Source: a virus
Lineage: Duplodnaviria; Heunggongvirae; Uroviricota; Caudoviricetes
Reading direction: 5' to 3' (one strand)
Length of the DNA: 50,193 bases
Virus record (IMG/VR): IMGVR_UViG_2585427746_000005
Coordinates: 1-50,193 of that record
The position numbers were made by a program, and so were the translations under genes. The first letter of the stretch is position 1. The number at the start of each line of letters is the position of its first letter. Positions 23,392 through 48,396 of this stretch are shown here, piece by piece. The notes under the pieces are model-generated. The model made no database searches, had not been told where the DNA came from, and was given only the letters and a program-made list of their open reading frames with translations.

Positions 23392-24087
23392 CTAAAACCT
23401 ATCAATTTCCAAACATGAAATGGCATCATTGAAAATTGAAAAATGCTCATCAGGAACCACTGCAGAAGCCCCACTAGTTAATTCAAAACTAATCTTTGAA
23501 TCAAGGTAAAGCCCTCCAGCTTTTATTTTATCGAGCTTGAATTCGCCATCCCCAACAAAACTCTTCAAATCATGCAAAGCATCGCCACTAGAATTCAATT
23601 CCAAACATGCTCTTGTTTTGTCAGTAACAGGAAGATTTGATACCTTCACTTTTGAAATACCAAACACCTTTACGCCAAAATTTTCTCGAACGACCCTCAT
23701 GAAAGCTTTAAGATCAACGGTTAAATTTCCATAAGCAACATTTAATCCTTCAGCCTGAGATAAAAAATCGATGAAAGGTTTAACTGTTTTTGGCGGATTG
23801 TAAAAAGTTAACAGACATATCTTATTGCTGAGGGTTTGGATAGAAAAACTAATCTGATCAAATACAACCCTTTCGAATTCCAGCACCTCACCAAATGGAT
23901 CGGCAACCGGCTCTAAAACAACAGATTTTTTATTGAAAGTTGCAGCAATACCATTATGAATGGTTTCATACTTAGTAAAGCCAGCACCAATAGCATCAGA
24001 ATAAGGCGTGTTTTTGATAAAATCAAAGACAGCCTCAGGGCTGGTTCTGATTTTCAATCTCATCCACTTCAATCTTAATTGTGACAT
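23392..24087 (-). CDS. Cargo operon gene 3, hypothetical protein
   Basis: 231 aa from ATG with AAGGAG SD; AT-rich; no motif recognised. Confidence 0.7.
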   Translation of the reverse strand: MSQLRLKWMRLKIRTSPEAVFDFIKNTPYSDAIGAGFTKYETIHNGIAATFNKKSVVLEPVADPFGEVLEFERVVFDQISFSIQTLSNKICLLTFYNPPKTVKPFIDFLSQAEGLNVAYGNLTVDLKAFMRVVRENFGVKVFGISKVKVSNLPVTDKTRACLELNSSGDALHDLKSFVGDGEFKLDKIKAGGLYLDSKISFELTSGASAVVPDEHFSIFNDAISCLEIDRF

Positions 24088-24106
24088 AGCCACTCCTTAT
24101 GATGTA

Positions 24107-25171
24107 TTAGCTGATTTCCATTATAATAGAATAAGCTCTATTTTCAATTAGTTTATTGAATCGCTCAGCTTCTCTACCAGAGAGTTTTTGCGGCTTACTG
24201 AAATATTGTCCATTTGCCTTATACTTTCTGACTCCCTTAACCAAATATGAAAAATTAGTACAATTAAGAGGATCACCAAATTGGGCCTCAAGCTCAAATA
24301 TATCTGGATCAGCCAAGTTCTCCTTGACCTTCCATTTTATTTTCCAAATATAGAACCCTCTATCATAAAGATCACTTAATTCATCAGATTTAAGCACCCC
24401 CTCCCCCTTAAGTGATGCCCTAGACACGTGCACCCCAGTTTCGGTGTTTCCATCTTCAGCCTCAATAGTTTCAGGCTTAGGGTGATATACATAAGCATCA
24501 GTAACATCCAGTAACTCATAACCATCAAGTGTACGGATTAATCTATCGAAGAATAAAGTTCTAACATCAGCAGATGTATTGTGAGAGAGAGAAATTTCGT
24601 TTAATTTTAAATCAAGGTTACTATCATCCGCTTGCTCGTCCTGAATAGCGCTGATGTGCCCAAGTAAGAGTCCCTCGTAATCTTCAAGGTTTTCATTATC
24701 TGGACGACGGATACTGTAACCATCATCAAGAGGCTCAATTTCAATTAACGCCTCTTTATTAATAGCCTGTTTGAAATCACTTTTACCATAATTAGTTGAA
24801 AGATACCTGATATTAATAAGAACTCGAGGCCCATCTACGATTATTTTACAATAATCATCCTGATCGGTAATTTCTTTCTTAAGTTTTTCTGCGGCATCTA
24901 TAATACCTTTCTTATCTATACCAGTCTCAATTCTTACACATGTAAATTTTTCGGTCCTTGTCTGGCCACCTAAAAGGGTTGCAATTTTTTGATGCTCGTA
25001 ATAATCATGAGTCATTCGAGAATAGTTTCTTGCCAATTCTTTTCGAGGTGTTTTTTTACATATTATTGTCCCCCTCTCTAAGAAAAGATCTTGAATTTCA
25101 TTTAGAGTAATTTGCTTTTGGTTTAAAGCATCATATAAAGCTTTATCAGTTACGCTGTGAATATTTTTCAT
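24107..25171 (-). CDS. Cargo operon gene 2, hypothetical protein
   Basis: 354 aa from ATG (MKNIHSV...) with GGGAG SD; ATGA overlap with gene 1 stop; no motif recognised. Confidence 0.7.
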   Translation of the reverse strand: MKNIHSVTDKALYDALNQKQITLNEIQDLFLERGTIICKKTPRKELARNYSRMTHDYYEHQKIATLLGGQTRTEKFTCVRIETGIDKKGIIDAAEKLKKEITDQDDYCKIIVDGPRVLINIRYLSTNYGKSDFKQAINKEALIEIEPLDDGYSIRRPDNENLEDYEGLLLGHISAIQDEQADDSNLDLKLNEISLSHNTSADVRTLFFDRLIRTLDGYELLDVTDAYVYHPKPETIEAEDGNTETGVHVSRASLKGEGVLKSDELSDLYDRGFYIWKIKWKVKENLADPDIFELEAQFGDPLNCTNFSYLVKGVRKYKANGQYFSKPQKLSGREAERFNKLIENRAYSIIMEIS

Positions 25172-26232
25172 TTCGGCTCCCAAGAAATAACTTCTGCAGA
25201 GAAGAATTCTTTTACTGTAGACACAACTTTAACGTCTAAATCTTCAAGCCTCTTTTTAGCTTCTTCATCTAACCCATACTCATGTGCATATTTTTCAACT
25301 CCACGTTGAAAGTGTGAGAGAATCCTCTCATCTTTTTCTCGATAAGCCAGCCTTATCCTAATTTTATTTATACCATCAAGAATTTGATAATTTGACAAAA
25401 TATCTAACAAATAAAAAAATTCATTGTCGCTATTACCTTTTTTGTTGTAATACACAACAAACCCTTCTGGATAAACCTCCTCCTCTATACCTTTAGCTCT
25501 ATTATATTTATGAACAGCGCCATGTTTGATAATCATGAAAGGTGATGACAAGACTTCTATAGTAGCTGGAAGATATTTTTCAGTCACAGCAACCTTATGA
25601 AAAGTCAATTGAGGGTAATAGAATCCATATTCTTCATCAGGAAACTCTTTCTTAGCAATCAAATCATTCATATCATTCGTAATTGCCAACATATAATTAA
25701 TCAAAAATGGATCGATTATATGAATTTGCTGACCTGAAGATAAAGGAATCTTTTCTAAATTGACAGCCTTATCCCTTCTTCCTTTAGTAGGTTTAGGAGG
25801 ATTAAAAAAATCATAAAAATCATGCTGCAACTGATTATCATGATTAAAAACAAACAACAAACCTCGAACTTCACAGTCGATTTGAGAAAAATTATACTTT
25901 TCTGACCACTCAGGACTATACCGAGCACATTCAATAGTTTTTGCTAATGACTCCAGTGCAGATTCTATTTTTGACGCATTTATTGAACCTGCTTTATAAC
26001 TTTTTAAATCAGTATTTAAATAAATGACCTTGTTTAAATATGGATCTTTATAACTAAAAACAACATCTACAGGATGCGTATGCTTCTGTTTCTTACCTTC
26101 GGGCTTATGTTTAGCCTCATCATCACAAAGGAAATCTCGGTCGCAGGGGCCATGCTGCTGCCACTTAAATCGACTCAGTAGATCCTCAGATATGCGTTTT
26201 GCCAAATCTTCAATAGGGCCGTTCTCTGCCAT
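25168..26232 (-). CDS. Cargo operon gene 1, hypothetical protein (possible PD-(D/E)xK-like motif)
   Basis: 354-aa ORF, ATG with AAGGAA SD; HPVDVVF...IYLNTDLKSYK could be a D...(D/E)xK nuclease core but this is unverified. Confidence 0.7.
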   Translation of the reverse strand: MAENGPIEDLAKRISEDLLSRFKWQQHGPCDRDFLCDDEAKHKPEGKKQKHTHPVDVVFSYKDPYLNKVIYLNTDLKSYKAGSINASKIESALESLAKTIECARYSPEWSEKYNFSQIDCEVRGLLFVFNHDNQLQHDFYDFFNPPKPTKGRRDKAVNLEKIPLSSGQQIHIIDPFLINYMLAITNDMNDLIAKKEFPDEEYGFYYPQLTFHKVAVTEKYLPATIEVLSSPFMIIKHGAVHKYNRAKGIEEEVYPEGFVVYYNKKGNSDNEFFYLLDILSNYQILDGINKIRIRLAYREKDERILSHFQRGVEKYAHEYGLDEEAKKRLEDLDVKVVSTVKEFFSAEVISWEPK

Positions 26233-26490: not shown

Positions 26491-26748
26491 TCACGTCAGC
26501 GTAAAATCATCGTCAAAATCCATAAAATTAGCCGCCGCCTGCGTATGCTGGACTATGTACACAACACCATCGTGAAGGGAAACCGGGTATTCAAACTCCA
26601 GCATAAACAATCCATCATAAGTTTTTCCTAACCAGAAGCCGCCGCCGTATTGCTTGCCTCGCTGAAACAGAACCCAGCCACCGGGAACGTACTTCTGCAG
26701 TATCTCATCCCGATAAACGACCTGATAATTACTGTCACTTTTGCCCAC
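26491..26748 (-). CDS. Small hypothetical protein
   Basis: 85-aa ORF between cos and the DinI-like gene; no motif recognised. Confidence 0.35.
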   Translation of the reverse strand: MGKSDSNYQVVYRDEILQKYVPGGWVLFQRGKQYGGGFWLGKTYDGLFMLEFEYPVSLHDGVVYIVQHTQAAANFMDFDDDFTLT

Positions 26749-26821
26749 GGCCTAACGCCTCGCTTCTCTCGTTGTTCAACCTTGCAAGCGGTAAAACCAG
26801 TTTTATCGCTTGCAATGTTCG

Positions 26822-27055
26822 TTAATGCATCCAGCTATCGTCCTCCCAGACCTGCTGCATTATTTCCATTACCTGCTGCTTATCTTCATCAAGTTTTACG
26901 CCACTCAATTCGATGCCATTGGTACTGCCTTTACGAATGCGGATCGTGGTTTTGGGATACAGAGGTTGCAGGTTCCGATAAAGCTCTGCCTCTAATGCTT
27001 CCAGTGTCGCCTGGCTAATTTTCTGCTCTTTATCAATCATTATTTCGACACGCAT
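26822..27055 (-). CDS. DinI-family protein (Tum C-terminal-like)
   Basis: MRVEIMIDKEQ...MEIMQQVWEDDSW resembles DinI (MRIEVTIAK...ISEILQETWE); ATG start. Confidence 0.75.
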   Translation of the reverse strand: MRVEIMIDKEQKISQATLEALEAELYRNLQPLYPKTTIRIRKGSTNGIELSGVKLDEDKQQVMEIMQQVWEDDSWMH

Positions 27056-27067
27056 AAGAGGCCGCCT

Positions 27068-27256
27068 TTAGCTGGTTACGTCCATTGAACGGTTATATTC
27101 ATAGCTTCTGATTTTCGCCATCAACTCATCAGTCAGCTCTGAAACCCACTGGATAGCCAGCCGCTTTTCTTCATCGCTGCACTCACTAGCCGCTACAAGC
27201 TTGATAAAAAAATCAATGCGCTGGAGCTTCAACGACTCCAAAAGGTAGTCCTGCAT
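27068..27256 (-). CDS. Tum-like antirepressor N-terminal ORF (SOS-regulated)
   Basis: 62 aa from ATG with AGGAGG SD; separated from the DinI-like ORF by an in-frame TAA; LexA box just upstream. Confidence 0.55.
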   Translation of the reverse strand: MQDYLLESLKLQRIDFFIKLVAASECSDEEKRLAIQWVSELTDELMAKIRSYEYNRSMDVTS

Positions 27257-27303
27257 TTTCCCTCCTATCACTACTATCGACCAAATAACTGTATGTATAT
27301 CCA

Positions 27304-27319
27304 CTGTTTATATATACAG
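27304..27319. promoter_or_regulatory. LexA (SOS) box
   Basis: CTGTTTATATATACAG matches CTGT-N8-ACAG with AT-rich spacer; about 50 nt upstream of the tum-like ATG. Confidence 0.75.
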
Positions 27320-27399
27320 TATAGTAGCTATTTCGAATTGTAAAACCCTTTTTTGCTTTCAATCAGATAGCGCTGATAGAAATCAAATAATCAGGAAAA

Positions 27400-29862
27400 T
27401 CAATACCACTGCCGCCATTTGTCATCTTCCTGCAGTCGCTGGTTCCGGTAAAAAAGCCGCAGGCCAGCGCCAGATGGGATACTGCCACCTCGCAGAAGCA
27501 AATCGATCTCCCTGTCACCGCAGTCAAAGCCCCTGGACTGCAGCTCATACTCCAGCTGCAGACGCTGCTGATCGCTGATTTCCTGTTTATAGCCTCTTCG
27601 GCGCTTCGGTTTTACCAGCCGCAGACGGGTGTTTAACTCACGCAGTTCCTTTTTCCCCATTCCATGCAGGTATTCCTGCAGTGTTTGGTCATCCATGGTC
27701 GTTATATCAGGTGCAGCTGGCGCAGTTTTCGCCCCTGATTCGTTCAAATTTTCCACAAGGGGACAGTTATTGCCACGAGTCCAAGGGGCGCTAGCGCCCT
27801 GGTCGGCTGACGCCTCCTGCAGGTCAACGTCAACGGCCTTACGAACCATTTTCCATTTCACCGCGTGCGTACAAATCCGCCCTTCCTGAATAGGGGACCA
27901 GACGCCATAGATACGGATACCATGATCGCCATAAGTACTCGGCTCATCGTTCAGCTCGTAGGCTGTTCTGACCAGATGGTGTTTACGAGGGACCAGCACG
28001 CCGCCTTGCGCCATGACGTAAGTGGCAAAGCAACCGGCATCTGCCGCAGCCAGCACAGCATCAAGACGCGGATTGCCGATAACAGGCCGCGCATTTGCAA
28101 GGGCCACCAGAATCTCTGGCGTTAGTTCAGGTTTCCCCGGTACGGGTTTTAATGGCGGAAGGTCGCGTTTAGCCTGGCCCGCCAGCAGTCGCAGCTCACG
28201 GTAAGCCTGGCGGCCCGGAATACCGAAGAAGCGGAATTGCTGGACGCGATGCAGTGATGCCCAGGCGTTCACGTTCTCCGCGTTATCACGCAATGATTTG
28301 CCGGTTTCCTTGCTGACTTCATTAGCCAGGCCGCGCCCATCAATATTCTTACTGATGTATTTAGCGATGTAGCTGGTTGGCGTGCCTTTACGCGGATTGA
28401 TTAGCTCAGACTTAAAGCGCGGGCCGGTATTGTTTCCCAGCTCCTCGCGGTCCTCACGAATGGCAAACTTGCGCAGCAGCTCCGTGATCGCTTTGCGGTG
28501 TTTCTTGCGCATAAAGCACAGCAGGTGCCAGTGCACAGTGCCATCATGATGAGGCTCAGCGACTCGCACCCCGTACCAGCGCAGCCCGGCTTTATGCATG
28601 GCCTTACGGAATGCGGCGAACGTATCAACCAGATAATCACTGCTCTGTCGCACTGTAGCGCTGGTCCATTTCGGGTTTGGTCTGCCATTGTTGAGCGTGG
28701 CGTGGAAGCGTGACGGGCAAGTGATGGTATAAAACACGGCACAGTCGCCGCGCATTTCCGCGATAAGCTCCAGCCCTTTAACACAGGCCATCATTTCGTT
28801 ACGGCGGTGCGCCGGATTGCTGGCGCTGGCGTTTACCACATCCTCTAAATCCAGCGTGTCGCCCTGCTCATTGGTCAATTCGTGTGAGCGGAAAAACTCC
28901 AATGATTTACGGCGCTGTTCGCGCTTATGGATCACTGCTTCATAGCTGACATATGGCGACGCCTTTTTATTTACCAGGCACACTGCGCGCAGCTGCTCCT
29001 CGCGCCACTCACAGCGCATCTGCCATAATTTGCGATACCACCAATCCGCGCACAGCATACGCGCCAGCGAGCCGGGAATAAGCTCATAGGGCACAGGCTT
29101 GCGGCGGCGTTTCTTACGTCGCAAACGCTCAAACGCTGGCGGGATAACATCAAGGCGCATCGCTTCCGCTGCAACCAGTTCCCACGCCTGGCGGATTTCT
29201 TCCGGCTTCACTTCGTCAGTGGAATAGAGATCACCGCAGGCAGCTTCCAGACACATGCTCATATGAGCCGCAACCAGCGTGGACAGGCGTTTGACCTGAT
29301 CCTGATTCATTTCAGGCAGAACCAGCAGCCCTTCCAGCCCTTCATGGCTCGCCATGAATCGGAAAGAAGCAGACACCTGGCTATCACGCGCACGCGCCAG
29401 CCGTTCAAGGCATGGCCTGACGGTTTCACGCAGATAACGGGAATATGCCTGCGGACGGCCCAGACTATGGAAGTATTTAATACGCTCAAGCAGGGGTTTG
29501 CTGATGTGTGATGGCTCGGCGCTTACGTCTGCCAGAACCACCAGATCGGGATTGACTCGCTGCTGCTCGCGGGCCATTTTGGCGTGGCTGATCAGCCGGT
29601 CCTGCTCCATTTCACGCAGAACTGGATCACGGGCTTCGTTATAAAAATAGCGTTCCCAGACCTCATCACTCAGTTCCTCGCGACGCAGCCGGTCCTGCTC
29701 ATTGTCAGCGGCATACAAAGTGATCAGGTTTGAAAGCGCAGATACCGGCGCAACTTCCGCCGGGTCCGTGTATGGGTTAATCGCTTTTGGGGTTTTGTTC
29801 CAGGCAAAAGCAGCGGCGGCATCATGTACGCCGCCGTGGTTTTTAACATCGTGATCGCTCAC
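27400..29862 (-). CDS. Replication initiation endonuclease A (P2 gpA-like)
   Basis: 820-aa ORF with GTG start overlapping the Dam stop; size and position typical of P2 gpA. Confidence 0.85.
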
Positions 29863-33306: not shown

Positions 33307-33939
33307 ATGATACAGGTGAAAGCTGGCGAGAATACCGGGGGAAGAGAGGCTATCCATAGGCTAATGGCTGCCTATGATTTCAAATCCAGACAACAGCTGT
33401 GCGATCACCTGGGCGCATCAAAAAGCACCATGGCAAACAGATACTTAAGAGATAGTTTTCCAGCGGAATGGGTGATTCAGTGTGCTTTGGAGACAGGGGT
33501 TTCTTTACTGTGGCTCACTACCGGACAGGGTGAGACAGGTTCAAACATTGACCATAAAAAAGGTATCAATTTCGTGAACTCTGGCAAAGTTAAACCCCTT
33601 TCTGAGCTTGTCTCCCCCGAAATTGATAAGGCAACTCTCAACGGTGGTTTATTGGTCGATGCTGGAAAAGCAATCATTGATAGCAGCCTGCTCCCCTCAG
33701 ACTCAAGCAACCTATTGCTGGTGAATACTTCTGGAGATTCTTACTTAGTGGACCGCAGCCAAACACCTCCAGTTAACGGTATGTGGTTGGTAGATATCGA
33801 CGGAATAAAAAGCATTGTTAAGTTAACACGGCTACCAGGAAACAGATTAGTGGTCCATCAAGACGAATCATCCTTTGAGTGCAGTCTTGATGATATCGAG
33901 GTAGTCGGACGCGCATTAAAAATAATTAAGAGCCTTTGA
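33307..33939 (+). CDS. CI immunity repressor (186 CI-like)
   Basis: CALETG..LLWLTTGQGE and LWLVDIDGIKSIVKLTRLPG align with 186 CI as recalled. Confidence 0.8.
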   Translation: MIQVKAGENTGGREAIHRLMAAYDFKSRQQLCDHLGASKSTMANRYLRDSFPAEWVIQCALETGVSLLWLTTGQGETGSNIDHKKGINFVNSGKVKPLSELVSPEIDKATLNGGLLVDAGKAIIDSSLLPSDSSNLLLVNTSGDSYLVDRSQTPPVNGMWLVDIDGIKSIVKLTRLPGNRLVVHQDESSFECSLDDIEVVGRALKIIKSL

Positions 33940-36099: not shown

Positions 36100-36144
36100 A
36101 TGTAGGAATTTCGGACGCGGGTTCAACTCCCGCCAGCTCCACCA
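36100..36144. repeat. attR: displaced 45-bp copy of the ssrA 3' end
   Basis: Identical to 1016-1060; followed by a second integrase gene. Confidence 0.85.
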
Positions 36145-36180
36145 ATTTTTGATATATTGAAGTTCAGTGAAGTCTATCAA

Positions 36181-36212
36181 GCCCGCATGGAACCAGCCTT
36201 GCGGGCTTTTTT
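36181..36212 (+). terminator. Rho-independent terminator downstream of the displaced ssrA 3' end
   Basis: GCCCGCA ... TGCGGGC stem followed by TTTTTT. Confidence 0.55.
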
Positions 36213-36310
36213 ACGTCTATAGTAGTCTACCGAGAATTGCTAGAATCTACTCGTTATGGCACCCTTTTTGGGACCCAACACAAAGGGTCCAAAACATGAG
36301 GGTCCCAAAC

Positions 36311-37540
36311 ATGGCAAAAATCGCTAAGAAGCTCACTGACACTGAAATCAAAAGCACCAAACCTGCCGAGAAAGAGGTTAACCTTTTTGACGGCGATGGT
36401 TTGCTCCTGCGAATCGCCCCCTTAGCGAAGGGAGGAAAGAAAAATTGGTATTTCAGATATGCAGTGCCTGTGACCAAAAAGCGAACTAAGGTGAGCTTAG
36501 GAACCTATCCTCACCTTACACTTGCGAAGGCACGAGCTTTACGTGATGAGTACTTGTCGTTGCTTGCAAATGGTATAGACCCACAAGTTCATAACACCCA
36601 CAAAGCCAATGCCCTTAAGGATGCAACGGAACATACATTTCAAGCAGTAGCCAAGAAGTGGCTTGATGAGAAAGTCAAAACGTCAGGCATCTCCCAGGAT
36701 CATGCTAACGACATCTGGCGAAGCCTAGAGAGAAATATCTTTCCAACGTTGGGTGATACCCCCATTAAGGAGATTCGCCCTAAAATGCTTAAACAGCATT
36801 TAGACCCCATAGAAAAACGAGGTGTCCTTGAAACACTTCGCCGCGTCATATCCCGCCTGAATGAAATTTTCCGCTATGCAGCAACAGAAGAACTCATAGA
36901 ATTCAATCCGGCTGACAACCTGGGGCAACGGTTCAGCAAGCCAAAAAAACAGAATATGCCAGCATTACCCCCTTCCGAACTCCCCCGCTTCCTGGTTGCT
37001 CTAAACAATGCTTCTATCCGTTTAGAAACAAGGCTACTGATTGAGTGGCAACTTCTCACATGGGTTCGCCCTGGTGAAGCTGTTCGCACAAGATGGTCAG
37101 ATATTGATATAGAAACCAGCATGTGGAACATCCCGGCGGAGTTTATGAAAATGAAGAAGCCTCACAAAGTTCCACTGAGCAAAGAATCTTTGCGAGTCTT
37201 GGATTCAATGAAAGCCATCAGCGGGCATAGAGAGTGGGTTTTTCCCAGTATCAAAGCTCCACTCAATCACATGCATGAACAAACAGCTAATGCGGCTATA
37301 ATCCGTATGGGCTTCGGAGGTGAGCTTGTAGCTCATGGTATGCGATCAATCGCTAGAACGGCGGCTGAGGAGTGTGGCAAGTTTAGAACTGATGTCTTAG
37401 AAGCCGCCCTTGCCCACTCGAAAAAAGATGAAATAATTGCAGCCTACAATCGTGCAGAGTATCTCACAGAACGTGTGGTTCTCATGCAATGGTGGAGTGA
37501 CTATGTTTCGTCTCAAAAATACAAAGTTATTGCCGCATAA
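36311..37540 (+). CDS. P4-type tyrosine integrase (IntA-like)
   Basis: Start moved to ATG MAKIAKKLTDTEIKSTKP...; N-terminal arm-binding-like segment and C-terminal catalytic domain. Confidence 0.9.
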   Translation: MAKIAKKLTDTEIKSTKPAEKEVNLFDGDGLLLRIAPLAKGGKKNWYFRYAVPVTKKRTKVSLGTYPHLTLAKARALRDEYLSLLANGIDPQVHNTHKANALKDATEHTFQAVAKKWLDEKVKTSGISQDHANDIWRSLERNIFPTLGDTPIKEIRPKMLKQHLDPIEKRGVLETLRRVISRLNEIFRYAATEELIEFNPADNLGQRFSKPKKQNMPALPPSELPRFLVALNNASIRLETRLLIEWQLLTWVRPGEAVRTRWSDIDIETSMWNIPAEFMKMKKPHKVPLSKESLRVLDSMKAISGHREWVFPSIKAPLNHMHEQTANAAIIRMGFGGELVAHGMRSIARTAAEECGKFRTDVLEAALAHSKKDEIIAAYNRAEYLTERVVLMQWWSDYVSSQKYKVIAA

Positions 37541-37822
37541 CTCTTCCATGATGGGTTAACTATCTTGATTTATTTGAAGAATTAATGATCACACCATTAA
37601 CCTATGTGGACTAAGCATAGCCATTTACAAATGGGTACCTTGAGGCCACATAACGAAAGCTGTCGGTCATATCAGCTAAATAATTCACATCTCTTCTCGA
37701 TTATCATACACCTCGAAGAACTACCAAATTCGCTCTAATCAATGATAAAACAGTTGAATTCGGTTAAAATTTGATCAATTTTATCCTCTACATTGTATTG
37801 AATCATCCATGAGGTTTTGTGC

Positions 37823-39379
37823 ATGGCTAGCGGAAATGAAAAAAATCATAGAGTTAGGGTCGCACAGTACTTGAGGATGTCTACCGACCATCAGCAATAT
37901 TCTTTACATAATCAGTCTGAATATATCAAAGATTATGCTGAAAAGAACAATATGGAAATCGCTTATACCTACGATGATGCAGGTAAGAGCGGAGTCAGTA
38001 TCGTAGGCAGGCATTCTTTGCAGCAGTTACTTAGCGATGTAGAACAAAAGAAAATAGATATACAGGCTGTATTATTTTATGATGTGAGCCGTTTTGGTCG
38101 TTTTCAAAATAGTGATGAAGCTGCATATTATTCCTTTCTATTTGAAAGAAATGGTGTAGATCTTATATATTGTTCCGAACCTATACCCACTAAAGATTTC
38201 CCTTTAGAGTCCTCTGTTATACTGAATATAAAAAGATCAAGTGCTGCATATCACAGCAGGAATCTATCTGAAAAGGTATTTATAGGGCAAGTAAATTTAA
38301 TAAAGCTTGGTTATCATCAAGGCGGTATGGCTGGTTATGGGCTGAGACGTCTTTTAGTAGACGAAAATGGCATAGCTAAAGAAATATTGAATTTCCGCAA
38401 AAGAAAGAGTATTCAAACAGATAGGGTAATATTAATTCCGGGACCAAAAAATGAAATAAAAATTGTAAATAGAATCTATGATCTCTTTATAGATAGTAAC
38501 GTCCCAGAATTCATTATTGCTGAGAGATTAAATGAACAGAGCATACCTGCAGAAAATGGAACATCATGGACTCGTGCAAAAATACATCAAATTTTGACAA
38601 ATGAAAAATATATTGGAAACAACATATATAACAAAACCTCATCTAAACTAAAAAGTAAGCTTGTAAAAAACCCCAAACATGAATGGATTAGATGTGACAA
38701 GGCATATAAACCAATTATTTCAAAGAAAAAATATAATAAAGCTCAAGAAATAATTCAGCTCCGATCCATTCATTTGACTAATGAAGATCTATTAGAAAAG
38801 CTAAAAGAAAAATTAGAATCTAATGGAAAACTATCAGGCTTTATCATTGATGAAGATGATACAGGCCCTTCATCTTCTGTTTATAGAACCCGATTTGGTG
38901 GTCTTTTAAGAGCATATACTTTGATTGGTTATAAGCCAGAACATGATTACAGCTATCTCCAAATAAATGAAGCACTAAGATCATTTTACTCAGAGATAAT
39001 TGAGGATTTTAAGGGCGAAATATTAAAAAGTAACTGTCATATAGACGAGTATAAATATTACCCAATGCTTTACATCAATGATGAGTTTTTAATTTCCGTC
39101 CTTGTTACTAAATGCATACATATGAAATCAGGTAAACTTAGATGGAAAGTCCGGTTTGATAACTCACAGAAAGCAGACATAACAATTGTTATACGAATGA
39201 ATTCACAAAATATTTCACCTCTTGATTTTTATATCATACCAAAGATTGAAAACGAATATAGTAAAATGTGTATGATGGAAACAAACAACATTCGGTTAGA
39301 TCTCTATAGATTTGATAATCTTGATAAATTTCTACAAATTATTACTCGCATGAAAGTGAGGGAACTATATGCTGCCTGA
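37823..39379 (+). CDS. Large serine recombinase (resolvase-domain N-terminus)
   Basis: YLRMSTDHQ...GKSGVS...LLFYDVSRFGR resolvase motifs with a long C-terminal extension; ATG with GAGG SD. Confidence 0.85.
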   Translation: MASGNEKNHRVRVAQYLRMSTDHQQYSLHNQSEYIKDYAEKNNMEIAYTYDDAGKSGVSIVGRHSLQQLLSDVEQKKIDIQAVLFYDVSRFGRFQNSDEAAYYSFLFERNGVDLIYCSEPIPTKDFPLESSVILNIKRSSAAYHSRNLSEKVFIGQVNLIKLGYHQGGMAGYGLRRLLVDENGIAKEILNFRKRKSIQTDRVILIPGPKNEIKIVNRIYDLFIDSNVPEFIIAERLNEQSIPAENGTSWTRAKIHQILTNEKYIGNNIYNKTSSKLKSKLVKNPKHEWIRCDKAYKPIISKKKYNKAQEIIQLRSIHLTNEDLLEKLKEKLESNGKLSGFIIDEDDTGPSSSVYRTRFGGLLRAYTLIGYKPEHDYSYLQINEALRSFYSEIIEDFKGEILKSNCHIDEYKYYPMLYINDEFLISVLVTKCIHMKSGKLRWKVRFDNSQKADITIVIRMNSQNISPLDFYIIPKIENEYSKMCMMETNNIRLDLYRFDNLDKFLQIITRMKVRELYAA

Positions 39380-40265
39380 AAAAAATGAATTCCCAATAAT
39401 TCAAATTGAGATTGCAAAAATAAAATTTCTTAACCCACGAACAAGAAATAAGGTAGTGCATGAAGAAATAAAGGAAAGCATAAAAAAAAGAGGATTAAGC
39501 AAGCCTATAAGCGTAAGAGCTATTGATGAAGACGATTTCAAATATGCTTTAATTTGTGGTCAAGGGAGAATAGAGGCTCTTGTTGCATTAGGTGAAACTA
39601 TTATTCCAGCAATTATAAGAGATGTATCAGAAGAAGATGCTTACGTTATGAGTTTAGTTGAAAACATTGCAAGGAGAAGACCACGTTCTAATGAGTTATT
39701 ACAGGTGATTAAAGACATGAAAATCAGAGGACTTTCAGACTCCGAAATAAGTGAGATTACTGGATATTCATCGAACTGGGTGAGCAGTATTAATATGCTT
39801 CTTGATAAGGGAGAGCATAAACTTCTCTCAGCAGTCGAACGGGGTAATTTGCCTCTGTATCTCGCAGTGCAATTTGCAAGATGTGAAACTGAGGAAGCAC
39901 AAGATATTCTTACCGAAGCATATGATAAAAAATTAATAAAAAGTCGGGACATTATAAAGATAAAATACATTCTAAATCAAAGAACAGTTGGGAATAAAGG
40001 TGCAAAAGCAGCCGGATTTTATTATCACAAACCATCAAAAAGGATGACTGCAGAGGAGTTGATTGAGCTTTATGAAAATAGTATCGCTGAACATAAATCT
40101 GTTTATAACAACTCGAAATTTATAAAAACCAATCTACTAATAATAAATGAGATTTTTAACATCATAATGATGAATAAAAGCTTTCAAAATATACTTGAAC
40201 AAGAGAATCTTTCAGAACTACCATCTCAGATATTAAACCCAGTAAACAAAGAGGTATCAAAATGA
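39369..40265 (+). CDS. ParB/Srx-fold N-terminal domain protein
   Basis: ICGQGRIEAL resembles the ParB GxxR box; 11-nt overlap with the recombinase gene. Confidence 0.65.
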   Translation: MLPEKNEFPIIQIEIAKIKFLNPRTRNKVVHEEIKESIKKRGLSKPISVRAIDEDDFKYALICGQGRIEALVALGETIIPAIIRDVSEEDAYVMSLVENIARRRPRSNELLQVIKDMKIRGLSDSEISEITGYSSNWVSSINMLLDKGEHKLLSAVERGNLPLYLAVQFARCETEEAQDILTEAYDKKLIKSRDIIKIKYILNQRTVGNKGAKAAGFYYHKPSKRMTAEELIELYENSIAEHKSVYNNSKFIKTNLLIINEIFNIIMMNKSFQNILEQENLSELPSQILNPVNKEVSK

Positions 40266-41158
40266 TTCAGATACGTTTTGGCAAAAATTTTATTTACCTG
40301 GAAACTAATAAGTTAATTCCATCTAAGGAATTATTAGAAAACGTAAAGCGAAGCCATAAATATCATCAAATAGTTACCTCTATCGAAAGCTTGGGTATTA
40401 TTGAACCAATAATAGTATTCTATGACAAAGATAAAGATGTCACTAAGATACTTGATGGCCATTTAAGGGTTGAGGCTTTAAAAGACTTAGATATAGAAAA
40501 AGCTCCATGTATACTTTCGAGCATAGATGATGCTTTCACTCCTAACAAACAAGTGAATCATATAAATGTAGTTGAAGAACATAGAATGATAATTAAGTCT
40601 CTGGCAAAAGTATCAATTGAAAAACTTAGTGCTGCTTTGGGCATATCTGTTGATGCCATAAAAGATAAAGCTAATGTGATGAACGGCATAGATCCAAGTG
40701 TAATTGCGAAACTTTCTGATAAACCTATACCTAAGGCTACATTTGACGTTTTGAGGAAAATGAAGCCAATTCGTCAAATTGAAGCAGTCGGTACAATGAT
40801 TAATTTTGATAATTATAGTAAAAAATTTGCAATGAGCATCTTGGATGCAACACCGTCATCGATGATAGTAAATAAAGGGAAAAACACTCCCTATAAAAAG
40901 GACATAAAAAAAACCATACTTCGTCTGGAACAAGAAATGGCAACAACTTCGGAAGAAACGAAAAAACTTCAAACCGAGTATGGTTCAGATATGTTGAAAT
41001 TCGTTATAATCCAGTCATATATTAATAAATTACTTGGCAACTCTAAAGTTCTTCATTGGTTCTTAGAAAACGAGGTTGATTATCTTAATGAGTTAAAAAG
41101 AATTTCTAGAATAAATTCTTTGGATGATAAGACTCTTACTGAAAACAGCCAGTCATAG
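40262..41158 (+). CDS. ParB-like nuclease domain protein
   Basis: KILDGHLRVEALKDL matches the DGHHR-type ParB-like nuclease motif; ATGA overlap with the preceding gene. Confidence 0.65.
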   Translation: MIQIRFGKNFIYLETNKLIPSKELLENVKRSHKYHQIVTSIESLGIIEPIIVFYDKDKDVTKILDGHLRVEALKDLDIEKAPCILSSIDDAFTPNKQVNHINVVEEHRMIIKSLAKVSIEKLSAALGISVDAIKDKANVMNGIDPSVIAKLSDKPIPKATFDVLRKMKPIRQIEAVGTMINFDNYSKKFAMSILDATPSSMIVNKGKNTPYKKDIKKTILRLEQEMATTSEETKKLQTEYGSDMLKFVIIQSYINKLLGNSKVLHWFLENEVDYLNELKRISRINSLDDKTLTENSQS

Positions 41159-41811
41159 TCATGGTTTTATATAGCCTAAATAAACCAAGAAGTATACTTA
41201 CACAACGACCTTCACGCCGAAGAAGCTGTCAGATACGCCAGCAACCAAAGCATTGCGTTTAAGAGTCAGTCATTGATACGAAGGGATAACTGCGTATCAG
41301 CAGCCGGACATTGAGTCGAATAAAGGCTGGTAGAGAGGGACAGTTCTGTGTCACCGGGAGATTAGTCAGAAACATCAGCGGCAGAACAGATGAACCAGCA
41401 ATTGGTAGTGTACAGAAAACTCTCCAGTATATAATTATTCAACTTAACACTAAAAAAAATCACATAGTTAATATCATAATTTTTCTTTGGTCTACTTATG
41501 CGAGAGATATTGTGGCTTCAACCTGGTATTAGGAGTCGTTTCAGATAAAAGATGTTCTTCGATTCGACTGGACTTGGTAATAGCAATAAGTAATCGTGAA
41601 TATTGAAGGACGAAAGGCTACTTCAAAACAAAGTAACCTTTCCAATATTCCCATATATGGGACAAGTGGCACATTAACTGCACATAGTGCAGGATACATA
41701 TGACATAAAACTTTTTATTTATGGCATACATTAAAAATAACTTTTATTTTACGAATGTCAATAGGCTCTTGCTTAATACTTTTAAAATAATTAATTGATT
41801 TTTTATTATAG

Positions 41812-41831
41812 CTTCGCTTGTACAAGCGAAG
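41812..41831. repeat. Perfect 20-bp palindrome
   Basis: CTTCGCTTGTACAAGCGAAG equals its reverse complement; in the 1-kb non-coding gap between convergent operons. Confidence 0.6.
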
Positions 41832-42162
41832 ATCCTATTGTTCTTGAATGAATAATGCCAATTATAAAAGAAGCAAGGGCTAACCCTACGAAGCCGCTGC
41901 GCTTGTTTCTTTGGGTTCCCCTTGCTTTTCTTCCCTTCGGTTAGAAAAGAAAATCCAGCCCAGTTTATCAACTATCTACAGTATTCCCACTAAAGAGTAA
42001 CCGCCACTTTATACTCCGTTTGTGAGCTGAGGCTACTGTAGCATTTTTGGGTTTAAATTTTCTATCATTACCAGTTGTTGTGTCGGGATAAAAATATTTT
42101 CTCGCATCCAACCATAAAGATAGCAGATTTGCTATCATCATCACTTCACATAATGAAACTTT

Positions 42163-42194
42163 TTAAGTAGGCCTAAAATACAAGGCCTACTTAA
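42163..42194 (-). terminator. Putative terminator hairpin after the RelA/SpoT-like gene
   Basis: 11-bp perfect inverted repeat TTAAGTAGGCC / GGCCTACTTAA, 17 nt after the stop; no clean U-tract. Confidence 0.4.
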
Positions 42195-42210
42195 TAGCCG
42201 GAGATAGTTA

Positions 42211-43116
42211 TTATTTAGATGCTAAAATAGTATTTTTATTGAATTTTTCATCAGCATCTGTAAGCTTTTTCATTATTAAAGCAGGGGCTATATCCTGAAG
42301 CTCCGTAGATTTTATGAAAAAATAATTACAAAGGTAAATTATATTATTAAGATTAATTGGTATATCAATATTATAATCTAACATTAACGATAACAAACGA
42401 TCTCTGTCAATTCTATAAAACTTTTTACCAAGCTCTTTCTCATTAATTATTGAAATTATCTTTTCATCAAGCTTATCGTCCATTCTCAATCTTAATTTAT
42501 TTCTTAGCATAGCGGACCATGCGCTTGACTTATAATTTCTATATGCTAAATCCTCAAATAACTTCATTATTCCCCAATCAGATGTTTCCAAAGAGGCGTA
42601 AATTCCATTCAGCGCGCGACTAAGGTCATTATGCTCAACCCAATCCTCTTTGCACTTATAGCGTAGATCATGCTCAACTTCATGCCATCCTTCAGATAAA
42701 ATAGTTCTAAATTGGACTTCAAAAGTAGTATCAATATAAGAATATTTCTTTAATAAGACACTATCATTTGATAATACTTCTGGTAACTTAAAGACGTAAT
42801 TGCATCGAGTTGCCGCAAAGAGATTAGCCGTGGTTTCGTCTACGGTTTTAGATTCAATTTCGAATAATTTCTCCAGTGTTTTTTGAGCAATAAATAAATC
42901 ATCAGGAAAATATAATATTATCCTAACCCCAAATAAGTCTTGAATTTTTTTACCATCCTCTGAGTATTTATTAGGCTCTTTTTCATATTTCTTAATTATT
43001 GAGCTTTCTGATTTTGTCCTCGAAAAAAAACGATAAAGTAATCCAATACGATTAAGTTCATCTTCTATATCTTTTTGCAAACTTTGAATAATTCGCAATT
43101 CATTCCCGTTATACAT
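42211..43116 (-). CDS. RelA/SpoT-domain nucleotidyltransferase (small alarmone synthetase / toxSAS-like)
   Basis: DLFGVRIILYF and FEVQFRTILSEGWHEVEHDLRYK match the synthetase-domain motifs; start overlaps the upstream stop (TGATG). Confidence 0.8.
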   Translation of the reverse strand: MYNGNELRIIQSLQKDIEDELNRIGLLYRFFSRTKSESSIIKKYEKEPNKYSEDGKKIQDLFGVRIILYFPDDLFIAQKTLEKLFEIESKTVDETTANLFAATRCNYVFKLPEVLSNDSVLLKKYSYIDTTFEVQFRTILSEGWHEVEHDLRYKCKEDWVEHNDLSRALNGIYASLETSDWGIMKLFEDLAYRNYKSSAWSAMLRNKLRLRMDDKLDEKIISIINEKELGKKFYRIDRDRLLSLMLDYNIDIPINLNNIIYLCNYFFIKSTELQDIAPALIMKKLTDADEKFNKNTILASK

Positions 43117-45221
43117 CAGAAATTCCTCCCAAGAATTGCTTTAATCTCTGATATTCTTGCCATGTTAAGTTCAAGGAACGAACGCTTGTCTGGCGTAAGT
43201 AAAAGACCGTCTTTCCTCAATTTATCTAAAGAATGGAGTATTTCACTTAACTGAAATTGATTGTTGTTAGAACATAAGCCTTTTATAGGCCGATGCTTAT
43301 GATAGCTAACACTCCCTCTGGGACAGAACTTCTCTAAGATGTAAATATCACAATCTGTAATATCGTGATCATTTTCACTGTTTATCTCGACAGATTTTTT
43401 ATTAATAGCATCATTGTCACATTCACATCCCAAAAAATAAATATCTTCCCTACCACTTAATTCGTTAAAACTACAATCTATAAAAGAACAGTTCACGAAT
43501 GTAACGTTTTTATAATTACCACAGGTAAATATGCTGCTAAAAAACGAACAATCAACAAAGATAGTATCATGTATTATATTTATATCGCCTAAAGAAAGTT
43601 TTGATATAGACAATTGCTCAACACTATCATTTTTTAAATCTAATGGAACTTTTCCTATAAGCAAATGACTATAAAGGATTTTATCATTACCTGACATAAA
43701 ATATAAAGCAAACTCTAAGCTATGCCAAAGTAATTCTTTTTCATCATCGATCCTCGGCATATAAGATTGCACTGCTGGTTCTATAAAACGTTTATCACCA
43801 ATCCATTCATTTGACTTATCATTAATAATATTTTCAGAAACAAAATTACCAAGAACAAATTCATTAACAAATCCAATACCTTGGTTTTCTGAGCCTGACC
43901 GATCTAATAGAGCATGCGATGCTAATTTATTAACTAATTCGTCAGTAGTTGGTCTTTCATCTACAGTATAAAGCTTTCTTGTAGCCTCCAAGAGTTGTTG
44001 ATTCTTTTCAGTTATGACTAACGATATATACTCTCTAGACTCAGATGTGTAGTTACCCTCGACCATGTCGTCAGCTATTATTTTTAGTATAGTATATTGA
44101 TCTTCAATAGACATTAATAAATCTTGTCTTTTTCTTTCTCGCTCAAGCATTGAATCAAAATACTTCCTCACTATAGTTGTTGGGTCGCTTATAACTTTAT
44201 TAAAGTCGGTGTCGTCGATGCATCTTAGAAATGATAGCAGTACAGGGTTTGATAATTTGTTAAGAGGAAATCCTGTCGATGAAATTTCATCTAAACGTTG
44301 ACCTGGAAGCCAGTCTTCAATTTGTGGTTCATGAATTCTTATTCTTATCACATCAAAATCTTCTTGATGTGATGCTATCCACTGATGGAATTCATCTCCG
44401 TCAAATATAGCTGTTCTTCGAGTTGTCAAAACCACTTTTGCACTATCAGTTAGAAGCTCACTTATTGTTTCCAGCATTGGCTCTGTTTTTTCATAATTAT
44501 TTTCAATTCCGTTTGTACTTTCATGCAATAGTTCATCAAACCCGTCAAGTATAACTGGTACATTTCCTGCTCTTATTTCATTCCTTACTAAGGCTGAGCT
44601 TAACAAAGGAAAACTTCTATCAATTTCATCTAATAGTACATACCTGAATATTTTTGCTTGCCTATTCCTTGATAGTTCTGAAAATAATGGTATTTTCCCT
44701 ATATTGTTAACTATAATCTCCCTCAATAATTCATACGCCGTGCAAGTCTTTCCAAAACCGGCTGCAGCCTCAATCAAAAACAGAATTGGACGCCTATGTT
44801 GTATTCTCTCTAATATTTCCGTAACAACATTAGCTTCGCCAATAACACCATTTAAGTAATATTTTGAATTTATGTAGGAATAAGTTGCAGTAGGTGAGTG
44901 AATTTTTACAATTGAATCTGTGAAAGTATTATAATCTTTAATCAACCTTTCTTTAGTTGAATCGACGCTAAAGAAGCCATTAAATAATTCCTTATGTGCT
45001 TCTTCATAAGACTGATATTTTTTAATTTGACATGCATAACCTAACTGCCTATATTCTTCAAAGGTTTGATTTACATTAACCTCATTATTTAGTGGAAGTA
45101 TGTCCGCGTTATGGTAGTGCCCTGTTTTAATAGAATATACAGCAATACTTTCGTTACCTGTATTTTCTTCAGTAAAACCAAACCTTTTATATATCTCTGT
45201 AAGTTTGCTTTTTCGTAACAT
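43116..45221 (-). CDS. NACHT/STAND-like P-loop NTPase with C-terminal pentapeptide repeats
   Basis: Walker A AAAGFGKT, NACHT-type Walker B VILDGFDEL, C-terminal FVDCSFFSSIFTCGNYKNVTFVNCSFIDCSF repeats; start moved to ATG with AGGAGG SD. Confidence 0.8.
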   Translation of the reverse strand: MLRKSKLTEIYKRFGFTEENTGNESIAVYSIKTGHYHNADILPLNNEVNVNQTFEEYRQLGYACQIKKYQSYEEAHKELFNGFFSVDSTKERLIKDYNTFTDSIVKIHSPTATYSYINSKYYLNGVIGEANVVTEILERIQHRRPILFLIEAAAGFGKTCTAYELLREIIVNNIGKIPLFSELSRNRQAKIFRYVLLDEIDRSFPLLSSALVRNEIRAGNVPVILDGFDELLHESTNGIENNYEKTEPMLETISELLTDSAKVVLTTRRTAIFDGDEFHQWIASHQEDFDVIRIRIHEPQIEDWLPGQRLDEISSTGFPLNKLSNPVLLSFLRCIDDTDFNKVISDPTTIVRKYFDSMLERERKRQDLLMSIEDQYTILKIIADDMVEGNYTSESREYISLVITEKNQQLLEATRKLYTVDERPTTDELVNKLASHALLDRSGSENQGIGFVNEFVLGNFVSENIINDKSNEWIGDKRFIEPAVQSYMPRIDDEKELLWHSLEFALYFMSGNDKILYSHLLIGKVPLDLKNDSVEQLSISKLSLGDINIIHDTIFVDCSFFSSIFTCGNYKNVTFVNCSFIDCSFNELSGREDIYFLGCECDNDAINKKSVEINSENDHDITDCDIYILEKFCPRGSVSYHKHRPIKGLCSNNNQFQLSEILHSLDKLRKDGLLLTPDKRSFLELNMARISEIKAILGRNF

Positions 45222-45298
45222 TAAACTCACCTCCTGATATTTTTCGCAATGATGCTATAGTCGCTGTATGAACTTTTAATATAATATTACAAAAACCA

Positions 45299-45337
45299 TC
45301 TACATAGCTACCGCCTAAGCAATAATAGCTATGTAGA
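45299..45337. repeat. 12-bp perfect inverted repeat upstream of the NTPase operon
   Basis: TCTACATAGCTA - 15 nt - TAGCTATGTAGA; followed on the minus strand by GGTTTTTG. Confidence 0.5.
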
Positions 45338-45945
45338 GATTATCTGTAAGAGAACAGTTCAACGGTTACGTGCACGTTATGACATCGTTCTAACTTCATG
45401 GGGTGCTCAGTAACAGAACTTTTAAGCCATTCTTGCTCGCTGAACATGCAGTCATACCTATCACAAGCAGTACAACCATTACTTAGCAGACCTCTGCTTC
45501 TTGTTCCAAAAGGAACGTAAACCAGATGTTAGAGTTAACAAAACTGAAAGCCACTGCCCCCCAAATCTCCAAGTCAAACATTAGAGACTTTAAGTGAGCT
45601 CAGCCCAGATTATGCATTCTAATCAATTTCCAAATAATCAATCGGGCTAAGCCGTGGTGGTCATCGCGCCAATCCCCATAATGAAGGATACATCTTGGCT
45701 GTATCATCTTCCTTACAACTGCGTTTCAACATGTGCTGAACAACACTCAAGTTAATGTAAATGAGCCAGTGAATACAACATCTGTTTCAAATCACTTTGA
45801 AGTTTTCTTCACTTAATGTGTACGCCAAAATTATCCGGATAAACATAGAGTAACGGTCGACCGGGATTACAATCAACCAGTTTCATCTCTAGTAAGCGAT
45901 ATTCTTAAGGCGGCAGCGGAATGTTCTGACAACCCCACTGAGGCG

Positions 45946-46332
45946 GTGCTACAAATCTTATCGAAGCCAAACATCAGCTACGTTTCCCTAGATGTTAAAA
46001 TCAGTAGTCGCAGGGCCAATGCTAATGATCCACACATTGACCGTGAAGGGGCCTTTCAGGTGGGTACGACTGCATTCCAAGTGACCACCGCACCTATGGA
46101 GAAATTGATTTCACACTGTATCAAAATCAAACGCGCAGGCTACAGGCCGGTCATCCTAACTCTTGAAAGCAAGGTCATTGCAGCACGCCAGCTGGCTGAT
46201 AACGTTGGTATGTCTGAACTGATAGCCATCCAGGCAGCTGAAACTTTCATTGGTAACAATATTGAAGAGATTGCTATTTATGACGGCGATAAAATCCGTG
46301 AGAGTCTCGCAAGATTGATACATCTCTTATGA
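45946..46332 (+). CDS. Hypothetical protein or gene remnant
   Basis: 128-aa ORF with GTG start and no clear SD, after about 600 bp of ORF-free sequence. Confidence 0.3.
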   Translation: MLQILSKPNISYVSLDVKISSRRANANDPHIDREGAFQVGTTAFQVTTAPMEKLISHCIKIKRAGYRPVILTLESKVIAARQLADNVGMSELIAIQAAETFIGNNIEEIAIYDGDKIRESLARLIHLL

Positions 46333-46913
46333 TTGATGAGCCTCTTGGATCGTTAACTTACTGACCGACTCCTGAAATACATAGAGCTCAGTAAGCTTAA
46401 CGAGTCGCTTTTTTCCACCATACCTAAGCCCCAAAACTAAAGCACTACGGCTTGATTGGGCTGGCGTAAGTCTGCACACCGAGCCTTTTGCACTATAAAT
46501 TTCTCAGAATATATAACCAATATGTCAGTAAAGGTTTAAAGTGAATGATTCGTTTTGGCAGGATACTTACGATTATCACAACACTATCACATATTGTGTC
46601 TCACACACAAAGTTGAAAATCAAAACAGAAGTAAAAGATATAATATTCCCCTGCTAAAATACGATTCACTTCAAACATTTAATATTAATGGGATATATTT
46701 CCCCCTAAGCAATGGGGAAAAACGCCCATCAATCAACCATGAAATAAAAATAGCACTTTTTGCAAACTATGAATTTATTTATATAAAACATCACATTAAA
46801 TTAGTTTATTCAAAAGAAAACGCTTGCTTATTTTTTATTATTAAAAATAAATTTGATTTTTATTTATTTGATAATATACATTCATTTCATCAAAATAATA
46901 AAGGAGAATAAAA

Positions 46914-47354
46914 ATGAAAAAACAAAACTATTCAACCCTGACAAGTTACCTATCTAAAACAAAAAAGAATACAGATCTCTACCGTCTGTATAACCCTCAC
47001 TTTTCAATATTCTGTAAAAATAGCATTGAAGATCATGTTTTTTATCTTAATTATTTTTCCAGACATATGGTGACGGAAAGAAATATTCTGACCATATTTG
47101 CTATCCATACCTTTTTCTCTTATAGCATGGAAAAAAAAGACACCATAAAAGCTTTTACCCGTTTTCTTAAAGAGGAGAATCACGATACTTTCTATCAGTC
47201 ATTTTCTTTTCGTGGCTGCAATATCATTTACACAAACAAAAAAGGCGAAGTGAAAGAGATCTCATGGTTTTCTTTTTCACGGATCTATGACGAGATCATT
47301 AAGATAAAAGAATATGAATACAACAATAATACCTGGCACAAAACGACCGCTTAA
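46914..47354 (+). CDS. Hypothetical protein (first gene of ankyrin operon)
   Basis: 146-aa AT-rich ORF, ATG with AAAGGAG SD. Confidence 0.6.
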   Translation: MKKQNYSTLTSYLSKTKKNTDLYRLYNPHFSIFCKNSIEDHVFYLNYFSRHMVTERNILTIFAIHTFFSYSMEKKDTIKAFTRFLKEENHDTFYQSFSFRGCNIIYTNKKGEVKEISWFSFSRIYDEIIKIKEYEYNNNTWHKTTA

Positions 47355-47368
47355 AAAGGAGAACGCCC

Positions 47369-48322: not shown

Positions 48323-48396
48323 AACTCTGGAGTAAACAACCCTTTTCTTAGTCTGCAAGGATTCATTTAATGACCATTAATCTGATATGTCCTCGT

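Follow-up and report, generated by a model that had tools for sequence, protein, structure and literature searches.

Two adjacent genes, tumA-like and dinI-like, in a predicted LexA-repressed operon of a Fels-2-like prophage

The stretch of DNA analyzed here, IMG/VR virus record IMGVR_UViG_2585427746_000005 (50,193 nt in full, referred to below as the window), carries a P2-like prophage in which an open reading frame (ORF) of 62 codons, ORF62, is followed by a DinI-like one of 77 codons, ORF77. The coordinates of these genes are read on the minus strand, and all features are collected in Table 1. Judging by the sequence features, homologies, conservation and purifying selection that were directly observed, the locus is best explained as the SOS-induction module of a Fels-2-like (186-type) P2-family prophage, consisting of two independent genes in one LexA-repressed operon; we put the probability of this reading at about 0.88. 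An earlier note, made from the sequence alone, had described the locus as an SOS (LexA)-controlled tum-like module, divided by a TAA codon that might either separate two products or represent a nonsense mutation. The module is indeed of this type, and adjoins gene A of a 186/Fels-2-like prophage; the proposal of a mutation is considered below.

The two open reading frames and their products

The consensus LexA box reported in the earlier note upstream of ORF62 is present as a perfect CTGT-N8-ACAG. A strong ribosome-binding site (RBS), AGGAGGG, and then the ATG at 27256 follow 47 bases downstream of this box. As the note had stated, with correct coordinates, ORF62 and ORF77 lie in the same frame, separated by the TAA and four in-frame codons (RRPL), and the single-frame translation reads ...DVTS-stop-RRPLMRVEI... 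Together they comprise 144 codons, compared with 146 in Tum of phage 186, which according to the 186 record is one polypeptide with a DinI-like C-terminal domain, again as the note had stated. The order of gene A and the tum module is the same in the window, 186, PSP3, Fels-2 and SopEPhi.

ORF62 belongs to phrog_698, a family of 63-residue phage proteins annotated as of unknown function (9e-36), and is identical at 97% of its amino acids to SopEPhi orf10 and at 87% to Fels-2 STM2728; hundreds of 62-residue 'hypothetical proteins' across the Enterobacterales are of the same family. A hidden Markov model (HMM) of this family was built from 27 diverse members, and 4000 composition-matched shuffles served as the control. 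The HMM matches residues 6-48 of 186 Tum with 35.5 bits (E 2e-7 at Z=1e6), compared with 8.7 bits for the best shuffle, and matches a 60-residue Yersinia phage protein annotated as 'tum protein' with 37 bits. The family also aligns without gaps with standalone '186-type Tum proteins' of 63-70 residues, which NCBI names 'Tum protein'. Because of this HMM match and this gapless alignment, ORF62 is identified as homologous in sequence to the N-terminal, non-DinI domain of 186 Tum. The AlphaFold2 model of ORF62 is a two-helix hairpin with a predicted local distance difference test score (pLDDT) of 89; Foldseek searches of the PDB with this model gave no match at E <= 1e-3, only generic helical hairpins, a sequence search of the PDB gave nothing meaningful, and in Pfam, where ORF62 has no family, the matches were below threshold and due to chance.

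The assignment of ORF77 as DinI-like, also made in the earlier note, is firmly upheld. ORF77 matches the Pfam DinI family (PF06183) over residues 15-76 with 84.9 bits (cutoff 24.2; E 4.8e-24) and phrog_189 with 3.8e-29, and aligns over its full length with the solved structure of E. coli DinI (PDB 1GHH; residues 1-75 to 1-77, E 2e-8). It is 41% identical to residues 71-145 of 186 Tum, and 82, 78 and 83% identical to PSP3 TumB, Fels-2 STM2726.1 and SopEPhi orf11, respectively. Membership in the DinI family predicts that the ORF77 protein interacts with RecA filaments.

In phage 186, derepression of the LexA-controlled promoter p95 leads to the production of Tum and thereby to the inhibition of the repressor CI (PMC7708051); Tum prevents CI from binding its operators (PMC7708051; PMC3121763). 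Tum resembles a fusion of an antirepressor with DinI (Lemire et al. 2011, PMC3121763), and in Fels-2 and PSP3 tum is split in two, with the antirepressor activity of PSP3 carried by the upstream gene (PMC3121763). For Fels-2, that article credits the split to Bunny, Liu & Roth (2002). The PSP3 record annotates tumA as 'similar to 5' end 186 tum; UV induction of prophage' and tumB as 'similar to dinI and 3' end of 186 tum', and induction of SopEPhi via the 'antirepressor Tum' is cited in PMC9827884. By analogy with 186 and PSP3, the ORF62 protein would bind the CI protein of the prophage. The two-gene organization as such is already known, being annotated in PSP3 and described for Fels-2 in the literature.

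One gene or two

Two samples of related loci were compared: 34 species-representative genome loci, together with Fels-2 and SopEPhi, and an independent viral sample of 80 IMG/VR contigs chosen by a downstream DNA motif and not by tum. In each of the 34 genome loci, and likewise in the homologues from phages, the small gene ends after the same codon, with TAA, TAG or TGA as the stop. A dinI-like gene follows in 23 loci of the genome sample, the window included, after spacers of 8-12 nt that always contain a GG(G/A)G purine run, i.e., an RBS, upstream of the ATG; 7 of these 23 are in frame. Of the IMG/VR contigs, 56 have a split locus and 5 a fused one; 9 have tumA alone, 1 has dinI alone, and in 9 neither gene is nearby. 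Of the split loci, 35 are of the Fels-2 type, with spacers of 9-14 nt and 4 in frame, and 12 of 16 PSP3-type loci are in frame with a 3-nt spacer. When both samples are combined, 11 of 58 Fels-2-type loci are in frame, which is below the one-third expected by chance, and homologous spacers fall in all three frame relations. The in-frame relation in the window follows from its spacer being 12 nt long and does not go beyond chance.

The small LexA-boxed gene is found without a following dinI in 14 of the 34 genome loci, and in 3 further loci dinI is disrupted next to an intact tumA. The dinI-like gene of L007 (Serratia sp. L9), L012 and L039 (Leclercia adecarboxylata) has a nonsense codon, a frameshift or a truncation next to an intact tumA-like gene, and in L012 the junction element described below takes the place of the 3' half of dinI.

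The ratio of nonsynonymous to synonymous substitution rates (dN/dS) is 0.03-0.10 for ORF62 and ORF77, which reflects strong purifying selection, and about 0.03-0.06 for the dinI-like gene where dS is unsaturated. Relative to most other loci (L002, L007, L009 and others), dS of the dinI-like gene exceeds 2 and is saturated, whereas that of the tumA-like gene is 0.4-0.9; only the copy in Kluyvera sichuanensis (L010) is close in both halves. This difference in saturation points to a possible recombination joint between the two genes, located in the 12-nt spacer or close to it.

The form with both domains in one polypeptide is confined to close relatives of 186. By tblastn, the fused 146-residue protein was found in 28 phage records, all with 90% identity or more to 186 Tum, and 5 of 61 loci in the IMG/VR sample are fused, all of the 186 type. 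When the N-terminal part of 186 Tum was used as the query, most of the proteins retrieved were truncated or short and none was a complete 146-residue entry; the counts of fused and split forms were therefore taken from tblastn and the IMG/VR sample. A phmmer search of 1.84 billion proteins gave no TumA-DinI fusion among 60 cluster representatives. The 186 record itself lists a separate DinI-like product, 'truncated Tum', preceded by an internal strong RBS and a GTG start. This internal start suggests that the fusion is the derived state.

These results bear directly on the idea that the TAA is a recent nonsense mutation in a single, 186-like tum gene, such that the antirepressor is truncated and SOS induction impaired. 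The shared frame of the two ORFs, their joint length of almost that of 186 Tum, and the presence of both domains in one polypeptide in 186 are what such a mutation would leave behind. However, a mutation of this kind would not recur as three different stop codons at one position in every homologue examined. Nor would it produce spacers of 8-14 nt that set most relatives out of frame, or a spacer that holds a conserved RBS and has no homology to the 186 linker. Purifying selection on both ORFs, the narrow distribution of the fused form and the internal start that 186 retains also stand against it. We thus regard a nonsense mutation as extremely improbable, and the corresponding pseudogene was rejected on the conserved stop, the varied frames and the purifying selection. 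The suggestion of a mutation that affects SOS induction, made in the earlier note, is equally at odds with selection on both ORFs and with a small gene that often stands without dinI; nor does the description of one gene split by a TAA survive the conserved stop after codon 62. The alternative offered in the same note, that two separate products are made, fits the conserved stop, the RBS in the spacer and the mostly out-of-frame relatives. Conservation of the stop across Fels-2 homologues, which the note had proposed to examine, was found throughout, and the layout of two ORFs, each with its own RBS, is the rule among homologues, the outcome that the note had named as refuting its reading, and in that sense ordinary. 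As judged from these comparisons, the TAA is the ordinary, conserved stop of the first gene, and the impression of a split gene is an artefact of comparison with the atypical, fused protein of 186. The window does not contain one uninterrupted ORF of the fused 186 type, as the TAA at 27068-27070 interrupts it and is conserved in Fels-2-type homologues.

A different possibility is that the TAA permits programmed readthrough at a low level, yielding TumA, TumB and in addition a 186-like fused protein with a distinct role. The frame is common to the window, the Kluyvera sichuanensis locus and a minority of others, most PSP3-type loci are in frame, and 186 shows that a fused protein can function. 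Nevertheless, the Fels-2-type loci are in frame less often than chance would predict, many out-of-frame relatives do without a fused product, and the stop is TAA, the most efficient termination codon in E. coli. No structure that would promote readthrough was seen, though no search aimed at one was made. Low-level readthrough is therefore very unlikely in our estimation, and as a conserved feature it was rejected on the frame count of the Fels-2-type loci. A narrower version, restricted to the in-frame lineages (the window, the Kluyvera locus and most PSP3-type loci), would have ribosomes pass the tumA stop at a low level and so make a third product, a fused Tum of the 186 kind, that tethers the DinI-like domain to CI or RecA filaments and so tunes induction; we give it just as little credence. 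If it were true, split and fused forms would be the ends of a continuum rather than alternatives.

It could also be argued that the antirepressor is the DinI-like protein, or the product of the downstream gene ORF85, and that ORF62 has another SOS-related role. The role of TumA in Fels-2-type phages is drawn by analogy from 186 and PSP3, ORF85 is the next gene in the same orientation, and Gifsy prophages encode their antirepressor in another small gene, which lies after dinI (PMC3121763). Against this, ORF62 matches the non-DinI half of 186 Tum, no other gene accompanies the LexA-controlled promoter without exception among related loci, ORF85 is one of many alternative downstream cassettes, and dinI deletions in Gifsy prophages had no effect on induction (PMC3121763). 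The loci in which dinI is absent or broken led us to reject DinI as the antirepressor. Altogether, an antirepressor encoded by either of these other genes seems improbable to us, and our preferred interpretation remains that of an SOS-induction module in which ORF62 encodes a putative antirepressor and ORF77 a separate DinI-like protein.

The predicted LexA operator and promoter

The motif CTGT-N8-ACAG occurs twice in the window, compared with 0.45 occurrences expected by chance. The other match, CTGTTTATCTCGACAG at 43378-43393, lies inside an island beyond the prophage. Of 41 related loci, 40 have a LexA box with at most one mismatch at the equivalent position, the one exception being truncated by the end of its contig; because the equivalent box is kept in this way, LexA box 1 is not a chance match. 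The RBS of tumA is likewise kept among related loci, in the form (A/T)AGGAGG(G/A)AA, and the -35 and -10 hexamers are conserved along with the LexA box in 40 of the 41, the -35 hexamer as TTTACA in most. The annotated p95 promoter of 186 has TTCACA at -35 and TACTGT at -10, with the same overlap between the -10 hexamer and the LexA site as in the window. At the level of the sequence, the module thus appears to stand under a LexA-repressed promoter.

A second, degenerate box overlaps the first and went unnoticed in the earlier note. This box 2, of the form GTGG-N8-ACAG and located 15 nt after box 1, is kept in 23 of the 41 related loci, whereas 186 and PSP3 have a single box. The resulting double operator of 35 nt is identical at 29 of 35 positions to the double SOS operator of a colicin gene, TACTGTATATAAAACCAGTGGTTATATGTACAGTA, and on ColRNAI plasmids the latter was confirmed to lie 45 nt ahead of a colicin-like gene. 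In colicin genes, two LexA dimers bind two SOS boxes that overlap (PMC2994835). Boxes 1 and 2 resemble a colicin-type double operator, given the 29 identical positions, and a second LexA dimer may bind box 2. The likeness to the colicin operon consists in two LexA boxes with one base in common; the operator in the window, however, controls a phage antirepressor, whereas that of colicin controls a bacteriocin.

Taken together with what is known of 186 and PSP3, this arrangement leads to the following proposed mechanism. In the undamaged cell, LexA would occupy the operator, i.e., the perfect box and the overlapping degenerate box, across the -10 hexamer of the p95-like promoter. Upon DNA damage, RecA would be activated and LexA would cleave itself, allowing the operon to be transcribed. 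The two-helix, TumA-like protein of 62 residues would then bind CI (encoded at 33307-33939) and remove it from its operators, after which the early lytic promoter would fire and lytic development ensue. The DinI-family protein of 77 residues, the equivalent of TumB, would be translated from its own RBS and start and would modulate RecA filaments and the SOS response; it would be an optional accessory and no part of the antirepressor.

Several observations weigh against this interpretation. First, a strict sigma-70 scan called no promoter at the module, and the promoter was therefore placed by analogy with the annotated p95 of 186. Second, box 2 has GTGG in place of CTGT and so departs from the consensus at the normally critical CTG. 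Third, BLASTP gave no pairwise alignment between ORF62 and 186 Tum; their link is at the profile level and spans about 43 residues only. Lastly, PSP3 TumA is too diverged to be detected by the ORF62-family HMM, and the source for assigning antirepressor activity to the upstream gene is a personal communication on PSP3, relayed in PMC3121763.

Setting in the prophage and comparison with known systems

Table 1. Positions in the window of the features of the tumA-dinI locus and of two associated phage genes.
Feature	Position	Strand	Remarks
186-type CI immunity repressor, presumed target of the antirepressor	33307..33939	+	homology to 186 CI
Replication gene A, immediately upstream of the module	27400..29862	-	Pfam Phage_GPA, 3.3e-131
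-35 hexamer TTTACA of the putative p95-like SOS promoter	27339..27344	-	17 nt upstream of TACTGT
-10 hexamer TACTGT (putative)	27316..27321	-	overlaps LexA box 1; analogy with 186 p95
LexA box 1, perfect CTGT-N8-ACAG	27304..27319	.	CTGTTTATATATACAG; gene-strand reading CTGTATATATAAACAG
LexA box 2, degenerate	27289..27304	.	GTGGATATACATACAG; one base in common with box 1
RBS AGGAGGG of the tumA-like gene	27260..27266	-	direct sequence reading
tumA-like gene (ORF62), putative antirepressor	27068..27256	-	ATG 27256, 62 codons, TAA 27068-27070
Intergenic spacer, 12 nt, with RBS of the dinI-like gene	27056..27067	-	AGGCGGCCTCTT; sequence reading
tumB/dinI-like gene (ORF77)	26822..27055	-	ATG 27055, 77 codons, TAA 26822-26824
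17-bp hairpin that immediately follows the dinI stop, at the module's 3' boundary	26778..26819	-	conserved
Invariant junction 30-mer	26752..26781	-	GGTTGAACAACGAG-N4-GCGAGGCGTTAG; zero chance matches expected in the window

The prophage is about 35 kb long, P2-like, and inserted at the 3' end of the gene for transfer-messenger RNA (tmRNA), ssrA (tmRNA 698-1060). It is flanked by a direct repeat of 46 bp (1016-1061 and 36100-36145), and the flanking chromosomal DNA matches E. coli chromosomes with 100% identity. Its CI protein, of 210 residues, is 32% identical to 186 CI over the full length (E 2e-35) and matches phrog_4 and phrog_34054, annotated as transcriptional repressor; a CII-like activator and an integrase adjoin CI, and a portal gene is present. 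Beyond attR, positions 36146-50193 form a second island of low G+C content (37%) with recombinase, ParB-like and integrase-domain genes. As this island is 100% identical to E. coli chromosomes, the ssrA site appears, from sequence, to be occupied in tandem.

On its 3' side, the module is bounded by the junction element, i.e., the hairpin and the invariant 30-mer. In the hairpin, 9 of the 17 pairs keep their pairing through changes on both sides, and its G-U pairs favor the tum-sense strand; no U-tract follows it. Of 41 loci, 18 contain an exact 14-mer of the element, among them 186 and PSP3, the latter with two copies; at least 120 IMG/VR contigs carry the exact 30-mer, usually located 44 nt past the dinI stop or 49 nt past the tumA stop. 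In 186 the element sits after orf97. The start codon of the next gene usually lies within a few bases of the element. Further copies were seen in L001 (5845-5913), L004 (about 4555-4625 and 4960-5030), L018 and L025. Rfam has no family for the hairpin, only a sub-threshold, antisense match to Ysr100 (21.7 bits, compared with a cutoff of 47), and a literature search for the junction 14-mer gave no match. The element may be a cassette boundary, or a signal for RNA processing or termination, at the entry to the variable 'moron' region.

The first gene beyond the junction element is ORF85 (85 residues; 26491-26748, minus strand), which matches phrog_2100, annotated as of unknown function, with E 4.6e-37. 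It has a GTG start right after the 30-mer and the same orientation as the SOS operon, with which it may be co-transcribed; homologues of ORF85 (MGKKD..NYQ...) are found after the junction element at several other loci. Three further ORFs, of 354, 358 and 233 residues (23392-26232, minus strand), are situated between the tum module and the portal gene and have a G+C content of 35%, compared with about 55% for the phage. They match the PADLOC candidate-defence models PDLC03004 Hp1 (2e-66), PDLC03005 Hp2 (5e-39) and PDLC03006 Hp3 (2e-9), as well as phrogs 7059, 6531 and 5850, annotated as of unknown function. By these matches, the cluster looks like a candidate defence cassette in a variable hotspot of the P2 family.

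With regard to significance, the module represents the textbook, 186-type route of SOS prophage induction in its two-gene form, and thus carries little weight as a discovery. Its analysis does, on the other hand, allow an unnamed 'hypothetical protein' of 62 residues, present in hundreds of Enterobacterales prophages, to be labelled as a Tum-type antirepressor, and the comparative data indicate that the fused Tum of 186 is the exception and the two-gene form the rule. The prophage also seems to have kept the sequence features that SOS induction requires, which is relevant because it carries the candidate defence cassette.

The closest copy of the module found is that of Kluyvera sichuanensis, with 97 and 96% amino acid identity and the same 12-nt spacer, and a search of 5,426 complete E. 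coli genomes gave no high-identity match to the module allele, the best being 83.6%. Among characterized phages, Fels-2 and SopEPhi (Felsduovirus) share with the window the site after gene A, the two-ORF layout and the double LexA operator, and their proteins are 87-97% (small protein) and 78-83% (DinI-like) identical to those of the window. Fels-2 also integrates at ssrA. The downstream cargo differs, as does the spacer, which measures 12 nt in the window, 10 nt in Fels-2 and 11 nt in SopEPhi; among these three, therefore, the copy in the window alone is in frame. PSP3 (Eganvirus PsP3) likewise has a LexA-boxed promoter, a gene of about 60 codons and then a DinI-like gene of 77 codons, in frame, but differs in its single LexA box, its 3-nt spacer and a TumA that is not detectably similar to ORF62 by the family HMM.

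In phage 186, a LexA-repressed p95 also follows gene A, the N- and C-terminal domains of Tum correspond to ORF62 and ORF77, and Tum acts on a CI that is homologous to the CI in the window. In 186, however, the two domains form a fused polypeptide of 146 residues with a linker of about 23 residues, there is a single LexA box, and tum is followed by the terminator t95a and orf97 rather than by the hairpin and junction element. Finally, the dinI-gfoA/gftA operons of Gifsy-1 to Gifsy-3, lambdoid prophages of Salmonella, resemble the module in that a DinI homologue and a small antirepressor are separate genes in a LexA operon (PMC3121763); they differ in that the order is reversed, with dinI first, and in that their antirepressors and repressors are of other families.

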